A stretch of 64,000 nt of DNA, taken from Eledone cirrhosa (Eukaryota). A program made the position numbers and the translations under genes. The notes beneath the pieces were generated by a model. That model made no database searches. It saw only the letters and a program-made list of their open reading frames with translations, and was not told the origin of the DNA. The DNA lies in the NCBI GenBank assembly GCA_964016885.1, contig OZ024741.1, positions 123,194,001 to 123,258,000 on the forward strand, written 5' to 3'. Positions 47,504 through 49,482 of this stretch are shown here, one piece after another (the first letter of the stretch is position 1; each line of letters starts with the position of its first letter).

Positions 47504-47685
47504 ATTACGGCGTATAGTGTTCAGGCAACCATCGTCGCCTTTTTGTTCAACACTGACACAGGAACGATGTACTAGTTTCAAACTTATTACCTATCGTCAG
47601 CATCGTATACCTTCCTGCCAGATGATTGAACGTCTGAAAGTATATACTTTCCTTATTCATATTAACGGCTGAGCAGACTAATTTG
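47504..47685 (-). mobile_element. Inverted partial R1 monomer at the 5' side of the array
   Basis: Reverse complement of the monomer segment spanning the HHR. Confidence 0.88.
47564..47606 (-). ncRNA. Type I hammerhead (R1), core intact, stem II weakened
   Basis: ACGAUG-CUGACGA-UAGGUAAUAAGUUU-GAAA-CUAG-UA-CAUCGU. Confidence 0.78.
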
Positions 47686-48114
47686 TTGAACAAAAGGGCC
47701 ACGATTGGTTGCCTGAAGACTGTACGGTATAATTCGGGCTGTTAGTTTGTTTACAAACAAACCGAACATATAATAAATGTTCGGTAAACCCATACGTACA
47801 TATATATATATATATATATATATATATATATATATATATATATATATATATATATATGTGTTATGTATGTATATATATACATACTGCTGTACGTCTCAAT
47901 ACATATATGTGTGTACGTATACATACATACTCACATTTAAGTATCAGCCGTACTAAGAGTGAAAAATGAAATTTCGTTTCATTCTTTTCCATTTATCGTT
48001 TTCTGTGCGCCCGGCCGACTAACTCACACGATATGCAAATTAGGCTGCTCAGCCGTTAATATGCATAAGGAAAGTATATACTTTCAGACGTACAATCATC
48101 TGGCAGGAAGATAT

Positions 48115-48157
48115 ACGATGTTGACAATAGCTAATAAGCTTGAAACTAGTACATCGT
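48115..48157 (+). ncRNA. Hammerhead (R1), core mutated to UUGACAA, probably inactive
   Basis: Stems intact, two core substitutions. Confidence 0.7.
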
Positions 48158-48548
48158 TCCTGTGTCAGTGTTGAACAAAAAGGCGACGTTGGTTGCCTGA
48201 ACACTGTACGGCTTAATTCGGGCTGTTTGTTTGTTTACAAACAAATCGAACATTATAATAAATGTTCGGTAAACCCGTACGTACATGTATATATGTGTGC
48301 ATGTATGTATATACATCCTACTGTAGGTCTGTATACATATATGTATGTACGTATACATACATACTTATATTTAAGTATAAGCCGTACTAAGAGTGAGAAA
48401 TGGAATTTCGTTTCATTCTTTTCCATTTATCGTTTTCAGTGCGCCCGGCCGACTAACTTACTCGATATGCAAATTAGGCTGCTCAGCCGTTAATATACAT
48501 AAGGGAAGTATATACTTTCAGACATTCAATCATCTGGCAGGATGGTAT

Positions 48549-48591
48549 ACGATGCTGACGATAGCTAATAAGCTTGAAATTAGTACATCGT
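48549..48591 (+). ncRNA. Type I hammerhead (R1), intact core, predicted cut after 48585
   Basis: ACGAUG-CUGACGA-U-AGCU-AAUA-AGCU-U-GAAA-UUAG-UA-CAUCGU. Confidence 0.88.
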
Positions 48592-48980
48592 TCCTTTGGC
48601 AGTGTTGAACAAAAGAGCAACGGTGGTTGCTAAACACTGTACGGCTTAATTCAGGATGTTTGTTTACAAACACACCGAGCATTATAATAAATGTTCGGTA
48701 AATCCATACATGCATATATATAGATGCGCATGTATGTATATATATATATATATACACACTACTGTACGTATACGTATATGTATGTACGTATACATACTTA
48801 TATTTAAGTAACCGCCGTACTAAGAGTGAAAAAGGAAATTTCGTTTAATGTTTTCCGTTTATCGTTTTCGGTGCGCCCGGCCGATTAACTCACTCGATAT
48901 GCAAATTAGGCTGCTCAGCCGTTAATATGCATAAGGAAAGTATATACTTTCAGACGTTCAATAATCTGGCAGGAAGGTAT

Positions 48981-49023
48981 ACGATGCTGACGATAGCTAA
49001 TAAGCTTGAAACTAGTACATCTT
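48981..49023 (+). ncRNA. Type I hammerhead (R1), intact core, predicted cut after 49017
   Basis: ACGAUG-CUGACGA-U-AGCU-AAUA-AGCU-U-GAAA-CUAG-UA-CAUCUU. Confidence 0.88.
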
Positions 49024-49482
49024 TCCTGTGTCATTGTTGAACAAAAAGGTGACGATGGTTGCCTGAACACTGTACGGCGTAATTCGGGCTGTTTGTTTGT
49101 TTACAAACAAACCAAACATTATAATAAATGTTCCGTAAACCCATACGTACATATATATATATGTGTGCATGTATGTATATATATACATACTACTGTACGT
49201 CTGTATACATATATGTATGTACGTATACATACATACTTACATTTAAGTATCAGCCGTACTAAGAGTGAGAAATGAAATTTTGTTTCATTCTTTAACATTT
49301 ATATATATATATATATATATATTTATATATATATATATATATATATATATGTATATATATATATATATATATATATATATATATATATATATATATATAT
49401 ATATATATATATATATATATATATATATATATATATATATATATATATATATATATATATATATATATATAATAAATGTATT

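Follow-up and report, generated by a model that had tools for sequence, protein, structure and literature searches.

A dispersed hammerhead repeat family in Eledone cirrhosa: a probable non-LTR retrozyme with Penelope-type insertion footprints and a putative U6-like promoter module

Results

A tandem array between (TA)n tracts

The window, by which the whole analysed stretch of 64,000 nucleotides of the Eledone cirrhosa genome is meant, carries a short array of repeat units between two (TA)n tracts and, at a distance, a separate copy from a longer subfamily. The features are as follows, unit position 1 being the first base after the cut in unit 2.

13272..13722, minus strand: separate copy of a longer subfamily, with an intact hammerhead (cut site 13563)
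47453..47505, no strand: (TA)n tract at the left boundary, the insertion target (tandem repeats, junction)
47505..47685, minus strand: inverted, 5'-truncated arm covering unit positions ~317-434 and then 1-66
47564..47606, minus strand: type I hammerhead with an intact core (core at 47600) and a damaged helix II, cut site 47570
47684..48151, plus strand: unit 1, 5'-truncated at unit position 18, with an expanded internal TA tract
48033 (octamer), 48075 (TATA) and 48105 (predicted start), plus strand: promoter-like module of unit 1
48115..48157, plus strand: hammerhead with core UUGACAA (U3/A8: C3U and G8A), cut after 48151
48152..48585, plus strand: unit 2, 434 nt, with the short end at 48367 and the long end at 48429
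48467..48539, plus strand: putative promoter-like module of unit 2, with ATGCAAAT at 48467, TATA at 48509 and the predicted start at 48539
48549..48591, plus strand: type I hammerhead with an intact core and a U-G in helix III, cut after 48585
48586..49017, plus strand: unit 3, 432 nt, with the short end at 48800 and the long end at 48861
48899..48971, plus strand: putative promoter-like module of unit 3, with ATGCAAAT at 48899, TATA at 48941 and the predicted start at 48971
48981..49023, plus strand: type I hammerhead with an intact core and a C/U mismatch in helix I, cut after 49017
49018..49301, plus strand: partial unit 4, which stops at the long end of the family
49240..49301, plus strand: 62-nt optional tail between the two fixed ends, Penelope-type
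49300..49471, no strand: (TA)n tract at the right boundary, the insertion target (tandem repeats)

Tandem Repeats Finder, applied to the 64-kb window, gave a period of 434 with 3.3 copies at 47850-49302 (score 2182), and BLAST of one unit traced the plus-strand run over 47684-49288. Both results agree with the earlier note on this DNA, which had described about 3.6 head-to-tail monomers of 432-434 bp; these occupy 47684-49301, the plus arm stopping at the long end (49301). Within the span of 47504..49300 proposed there, 47505-47685 is an inverted minus-strand arm that had been missed. This arm ends before both of the usual ends and shares 2 nt with the plus arm; its stop at unit position 66 would reflect a later deletion. 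Unit 3 belongs to a different subfamily from units 1, 2 and 4 and the inverted arm. The GC content of the region is 0.32-0.37, and, as had been noted, the monomer holds no credible ORF, the listed frames being at most 120 codons from stop to stop. The hairpins named in the earlier note are likewise present in the predicted fold, and the unit folds better than 100/100 shuffles (z -5.6), part of this signal being due to the self-complementary TA/CA tract; as circles, 4/4 units gave z values of -5.5 to -7.9 (25 shuffles each).

The window array is one locus of a dispersed family. A search of the 3.0-Gb genome gave 23,662 exact matches to a 33-nt core pattern and 0 to its reversed control; scaling from one contig end, for exact cores only, gives about 12,800 loci and 0.4% of the genome. 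The sample studied further consists of the 54 regions that hold the first 100 core matches on one contig, in which 92 arms were delimited (median 450 nt, maximum 3,177 nt). A single ribozyme is carried by 28/54 regions, and at least two in one arm by 16/54; by these arm lengths and ribozyme counts the window array is longer than most loci. Variant contigs were also found in three runs of unspecified kind (7,644 in X1, and, at low depth, 12 in X4 and 4 in X5), and these contigs carry no information on expression, strand or ends; those from X4 and X5 are not counted as evidence for the range of the family.

Ribozymes and related families

A motif scan placed type I hammerheads on the plus strand at 48121, 48555 and 48987, with predicted cuts after 48151, 48585 and 49017. 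A hammerhead had been claimed for every monomer; three plus-strand ribozymes are indeed present, but the last partial unit has none and the core of the first reads UUGACAA. The proposed release of a 432-nt unit by two adjacent intact ribozymes is matched by two consecutive complete ribozymes at the 48585 and 49017 sites, with the right cores and spacing, but each with one helix change. Searches with hammerhead models did not recover the motif, with no hammerhead among the 89 Rfam matches at E<=1 and none at E<=10 for a 161-nt stretch; Rfam matches to miRNAs lay under the gathering scores and proved to be microsatellite artefacts. With Rfam not matching, the assignment rests on the motif scan, pair counts and two related families.

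In the family structure, a 6-bp helix I leads to an unpaired U and then to another short helix. A U-U mismatch underlies helix II, whose 4 bp are closed by a loop AAUA or AACA, and helix III consists of 2 bp round a palindrome. Helix III is weak, and cutting may be slow. Loop II is presumably the element that goes by the label 'RNYA'. The label does not occur in PMC2632901.

Sampled loci contained 146 ribozymes, of which 128 were used and 18 lacked an upstream flank. The core CUGAYGA is present in 122/128 of a sample biased by the search pattern, and this conservation is partly circular because most loci were found by the core. The U3/A8 core of unit 1 is described as a natural hammerhead variant in the available sections of PMC4209133; as a family-wide variant it was rejected, being found in 1/128 ribozymes. 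The unpaired U1.7 and the A that ends loop II on its 3' side are each invariant (128/128), and these are positions for which part of PMC11875169 describes a role in tertiary contact. Pair 3 of helix I is U-G in 57, G-U in 46 and A-U in 21 of the 128, and A-U in 21, U-G in 21 and G-U in 15 of the 61 distinct rows. Over these 61 rows, 95.5% of cells pair, compared with 30-51% in slid controls, counts that derive from related sequences with few independent changes; change on both sides was seen in just 2/16 pairs, and shuffles reach as many. Helix-preserving changes between subfamilies and between families indicate that the ribozyme was under selection.

The hammerhead fold is retained in three families, and comparing these gives stronger evidence than the pair counts do. 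Family W (1,102 candidates) has helix I ACAGTC/GATTGT, keeps U1.7 and the bulge, and forms helix III round a different palindrome; in family X (1,336 candidates) helix I reads GCTGTA/TGCAGT and helix III is longer. Family W (L222:9428-9530; L226-L249) is a third, older family intermediate between that of the window and X. Its promoter geometry and its ends are unchanged, and two same-strand ribozymes were found in none of its 24 loci. Family X, first considered as the end of a coding element, proved to be another non-coding family. It occurs in the window at 49470-49845, at 55982-56340 (minus strand) and at 59060-59397 (plus strand), and in loci L141-L165. Its unit measures about 410 nt by eye; 33-bp repeats hold up to three octamer-like motifs, the tail is shorter, and the copies target (TA)n and include inverted arms. 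They continue into the preceding unit in six loci (L146, L147, L148, L153, L158 and L162), with two same-strand ribozymes only in L147.

Several other repeats surround the array. Window segments 54930-56870 and 57915-59600 recur in inverted orientation; within them lie family X, a decayed Penelope-like frame and a further type of hammerhead (55022, 58016). Hammerhead-like cores near microsatellites at 49900-50010 (minus strand) and 47320-47380 (plus strand) failed the main motif scan and are probably ends of other Penelope-like elements. At 57650-57710 (minus strand) the tail motif of family X, with another end, lies between TA tracts; the tail-like fragment 57666-57693 is single-copy as an exact 28-mer. 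A frequent unclassified repeat with internal inverted repeats also lies in (TA)n (flanks of L024, L095, L221 and L247). Further away, window segments 24813-26741, 31498-33857, 37506-38030, 27414-28247 and 5784-6437 contain decayed retroelement RT/endonuclease frames, one frame resembling a Helitron and another, RT-like, that matches no Pfam family.

Insertion ends and coding Penelope elements

For the sampled arms, the 3' boundaries fall at two fixed places. The long end lies at unit position 278 and the short end at 216, 62 nt apart, both joining (TA)n, and 79/92 arms end at one of them (42 long, 37 short, 13 other). TA-rich flanks, by a crude score, adjoin 37/42 long ends, 23/37 short ends and 2/13 other ends. 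Six arms (in L023, L029, L093, L103 and L108, and at window 47505) end at unit positions 60-85, which may mark a third, minor end or a recurrent deletion. Inverted pairs were identified in 28/54 regions, and the 30 pairs comprise 20 long+short, 1 short+short, 0 long+long and 9 with a clipped arm; 20/21 classifiable pairs are thus long+short (p ~1e-5 under independent ends).

This arrangement resembles that of Penelope-like elements, for which sections of PMC8557442 describe partial tandems, a 5'-truncated copy in inverted orientation and a one-sided tail. In work with purified Penelope protein (PMC11167929), the tail falls between two internal starts of reverse transcription and the targets are AT-rich. 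Coding RT-like/GIY-YIG-like elements of the genome studied here also have short and long ends at (TA)n (L220, L221). The tail of 62 nt, against 30-40 nt in the literature, counts against the comparison. Taken together, Penelope-type insertion footprints are well supported by the genomic copies.

A repeat generated at the DNA level, either a minisatellite or a DNA transposon with a leftover or chance ribozyme, would account for the local duplication seen in L106 and L110 and for the missing Rfam hammerhead match. It is very improbable, as random 5' truncation combined with fixed 3' ends is a pattern of reverse transcription, the family is dispersed with just one ribozyme in 28/54 regions, and the fold is preserved in three families.

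In another proposal the unit is a truncated pseudo-LTR of some further coding Penelope element, and arrays build up through unequal crossover and partial-tandem insertion. Ends, tail and inversions all have a Penelope-like form, and Xenopus retrozymes match pseudo-LTRs in 24/57 families (bioRxiv 10.64898/2026.07.22.740005). Among the 74 hammerhead-bearing arms, however, 41 extend upstream beyond the long end, into the preceding unit, and the upstream flanks of 32 unjoined arms, which have other repeats in common, share neither a breakpoint nor coding sequence. None of 38 coding loci of one GIY-YIG Penelope clade, the clade to which this comparison extends, ends in a retrozyme unit; retrozyme copies occur in 3/38, each as a separate insertion. 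The unit itself has no ORF with RT and GIY-YIG, and its 6-bp helix I, 4-bp helix II and U1.7 are retrozyme-like and unlike the minimal Penelope hammerhead. The earlier note had allowed that the unit might be merely the pseudo-LTR of a Penelope element; in the sampled loci, with their wrap-round arms and no shared upstream coding sequence, it is not, and this origin for the family is improbable. An LTR-type layout was found in none of the arm maps.

A GIY-YIG family at window 62206 was considered as a partner and rejected, since it has a different hammerhead and no common 3' end. The segment at 62206-62718 (plus strand), like loci L051-L080 and L217-L224, is the GIY-YIG-like end of an abundant Penelope-like family with 53,331 first-look candidates, whose relatives carry their own hammerhead about 1.2-1.4 kb downstream. 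The Penelope-like frames tested matched no Pfam family, and a PDB search gave no useful match; among Atlas cluster members of these frames, RVT_1 was found in 12-17%, HTH_animal in 38-93% and GIY-YIG in 31%. Their identity rests on these Atlas leads and on sequence motifs that we take to be Penelope-type.

Template for copying

For the template, the position of 5' ends is informative, as copies made from a cut linear monomer, with priming at 216 or 278, would start at position 1. In a four-mismatch test of the whole genome, 21 copies start at the cut site and 11 at a control site 24 nt upstream of it, where the filter was somewhat stricter. The same test gave 137 copies over four positions at the predicted transcription start; by hand count, about 29 of 100 copies among the matches listed there are one-base shifts. 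Arms that start within 3 nt of the cut number 0/92, and within 3 nt of the predicted start 1/92, the largest pile of 5' ends being six arms at position 131, inside the TA tract. This lack of a preferred 5' end suggests that the template was either a circle or uncut RNA begun far upstream.

Units of one locus differ by a median of 0.7%, compared with 9.4% between loci (96 units, left from 145 segments after removal of 41 by the family filter and of 8 in which the element ended too early for the distance count). The low difference within loci fits the copying of one circle, and local duplication predicts the same; the nearest relative lies in the same locus for just 35/50 units. Near-identical units within one arm are found in L087, L085 and L094. 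A dimeric circle was considered for the ABAB pattern of L106, which is explained by a local 842-bp duplication.

The window array is no clean rolling-circle copy, as it mixes two subfamilies. Over the first 130 nt, the divergence among units 1, 2 and 4 is 7-8% of sites; between units 3 and 4 it is 20/127, and between unit 3 and an unlinked copy 6/127. The array is an older one, and its mixed make-up could have arisen by conversion, template switching or ligation of unlike monomers, with no diagnostic site to tell these apart.

It is conceivable, if unlikely, that the same Penelope-mobilised element was copied from uncut linear multimer RNA of tandem source loci, with the hammerhead trimming the RNA or making circles as a side product. 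Unprocessed RNA was the dominant substrate of purified Penelope protein, with internal starts (PMC11167929), mosaic arrays such as those of the window and L109 would come from mixed source arrays, and the weak helix III is consistent with slow cutting. Yet linear templates have a 5' end, and none is visible at the cut or at the predicted start; the near-identical units within several arms (L087, L085, L094) and the helix-preserving changes between subfamilies and families, which point to a selected ribozyme, also argue against it. A circular RNA template is the likely one. The description of the array as a retrozyme copied from circular RNA is thus upheld for the retrozyme features of the DNA; for the template, the circle is favoured and not separated from uncut multimer RNA, and the array itself is mixed. 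The two fixed ends, the copy number and the promoter-like elements had gone unnoticed there.

A promoter-like module

For each unit, ATGCAAAT is present at -72 and TATA at -30 relative to the AGG that opens the 5' strand of the ribozyme, which places the predicted start (AGG) 47 nt before the cut. Two U6 genes of the same genome have TATGCAAAT(T/G)AG at -76/-77 and TATA at -30. Eight U6 loci were compared: two have the exact octamer, four of one cluster have a one-mismatch form (displaced by an insertion in two), which lies at -78 by hand count, and two have none nearby. In families W and X the octamer is at -73 and TATA at -28 to -30 (the octamer is changed in L153), and family W matches one U6 gene over 13 nt. 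The spacing between octamer and TATA is 42 nt here, 43-45 nt in the related families and 46-48 nt in U6 genes; within the family it is 42 nt in 46/52 readings from 47 regions, among them 15 that carry an 8-nt loss downstream of TATA.

Other observations limit the resemblance. Local alignment of whole U6 upstream regions with the unit is no better than with shuffles, and the agreement is confined to the motif of 12-13 nt and its position. A loss of 8 nt between TATA and ribozyme in 15/52 readings counts against a promoter. The octamer is absent from 9/9 U1 upstream regions, but U1 genes too have a TATA-like sequence at -30, which also counts against a specific likeness. T-runs of 4-7 at the long end equal the U6 terminators of the same genome in length, so that Pol III would stop before completing the unit. 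Newt satellite 2 is transcribed by Pol II from an snRNA-type promoter, according to work cited in portions of PMC2220036 and PMC6765202, and a Pol II promoter of this type would avoid the stop at the T-runs. On balance, a working promoter in the unit is somewhat more likely than not.

The U6 genes form a tandem cluster with a period of about 1.8 kb and the U1 genes one with a period of 2.67 kb (G000:C19:31.78-31.84 Mb; C2:180.97-181.00 Mb). Some of the clustered U6 promoters are broken by a SINE-like insertion.

Discussion

The array and its relatives are best read as a non-autonomous non-LTR retrozyme family whose RNA circle would be copied and spread by a Penelope RT/GIY-YIG endonuclease, a reading to which we give a probability of roughly 0.55. 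An snRNA-type promoter in each unit, as predicted from its sequence, would start transcription 47 nt before the cut. From tandem units, by analogy with known type I hammerheads, the ribozymes would release unit-length RNA, probably as double hammerheads given that helix III is a 2-bp palindrome, and a host ligase would circularise the unit, as suggested by work in coral, mussel and axolotl. The Penelope protein, an enzyme that we infer, would then nick (TA)n DNA and prime at two positions inside the unit, 216 and 278 nt past the cut. Reverse transcription would cross the ribozyme junction and stop after a random distance, in many cases leaving two back-to-back arms; these ends, arms and random lengths are themselves observed in the genome. 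Later local duplication and conversion would have reworked some arrays, including that of the window.

Non-LTR retrozymes with demonstrated RNA circles are described for coral, mussel and axolotl in the parts of PMC7229834 available to us. Like them, the present family consists of non-coding, low-GC units of a few hundred bases with one type I hammerhead each, which are tandem and dispersed, of very high copy number and strongly self-paired, and axolotl HHR_Amex2, as given there, likewise has a U-U mismatch where helix II begins. Unit size, 420-540 nt here, is counted as a difference from those retrozymes, and the available text of PMC7229834 makes no mention of two fixed 3' ends, inverted arms, (TA)n targeting or a promoter-like module. 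With GIY-YIG Penelope-like elements, as portrayed in sections of PMC8557442, PMC11167929 and PMC4209133, the family shares partial tandems, an inverted 5'-truncated arm, a tail at one end, AT-rich or (TA)n targets and a hammerhead upstream of the 3' ends; unlike them it has no ORF, a full-size rather than minimal hammerhead and a 62-nt rather than 30-40-nt tail. Chlamys MRC1, in part of PMC8557442, provides non-autonomous head-to-tail elements in a clade mostly lacking hammerheads.

Retrozymes have been argued to be non-autonomous Penelope derivatives (bioRxiv 10.64898/2026.07.22.740005). The partner class is the same as proposed here; the preprint relies on co-occurrence and pseudo-LTR homology and sampled no mollusc, whereas here the class is suggested by insertion footprints, without a homologous coding element. 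In the same preprint, 8/9 predicted Xenopus retrozyme dimers were uncleaved in vitro, which counts against the reading given here. For the promoter, newt satellite 2 and Schistosoma repeats likewise combine a hammerhead with an internal promoter, which is snRNA-type and used by Pol II in newt and is used by Pol III in Schistosoma (sections of PMC2220036 and PMC6765202); in comparison with these, the present module resembles the U6 upstream region of its own genome in octamer and TATA. A 2020 review, in the part available, considered retrozymes to be seemingly promoterless and animal retrozymes to have no motif indicating a mobilising partner (PMC7761336).

No octopus retrozyme was described in the literature searched; the word 'octopus' is absent from the main text of PMC7229834, and 'ribozyme' from the available portion of a 2026 repeat annotation of Octopus vulgaris (PMC13282606), and the supplements of PMC7229834 and of the preprint may list cephalopod repeats. 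The retrozyme kind and, as an idea, the Penelope link are already in print, and the very abundant family itself appears to be new.

Penelope-type ends and inversions can be counted across thousands of loci, which gives a lead on the mobilising partner, and comparison of the promoter-like module with host U6 genes gives a lead on retrozyme promoters. The in vitro Penelope assay of PMC11167929 makes the choice between circle and uncut template directly testable. It is tentatively proposed that a lineage of at least three retrozyme families carries an internal U6-like promoter in a self-cleaving, self-circularising unit, whose circle a Penelope RT may copy from two internal starts, never reaching an end. 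If this is true, tens of thousands of copies would form a genomic record of rolling-circle reverse transcription by Penelope, and the recognition of the enzyme would be defined by the sites lying 216 and 278 nt past the cut.
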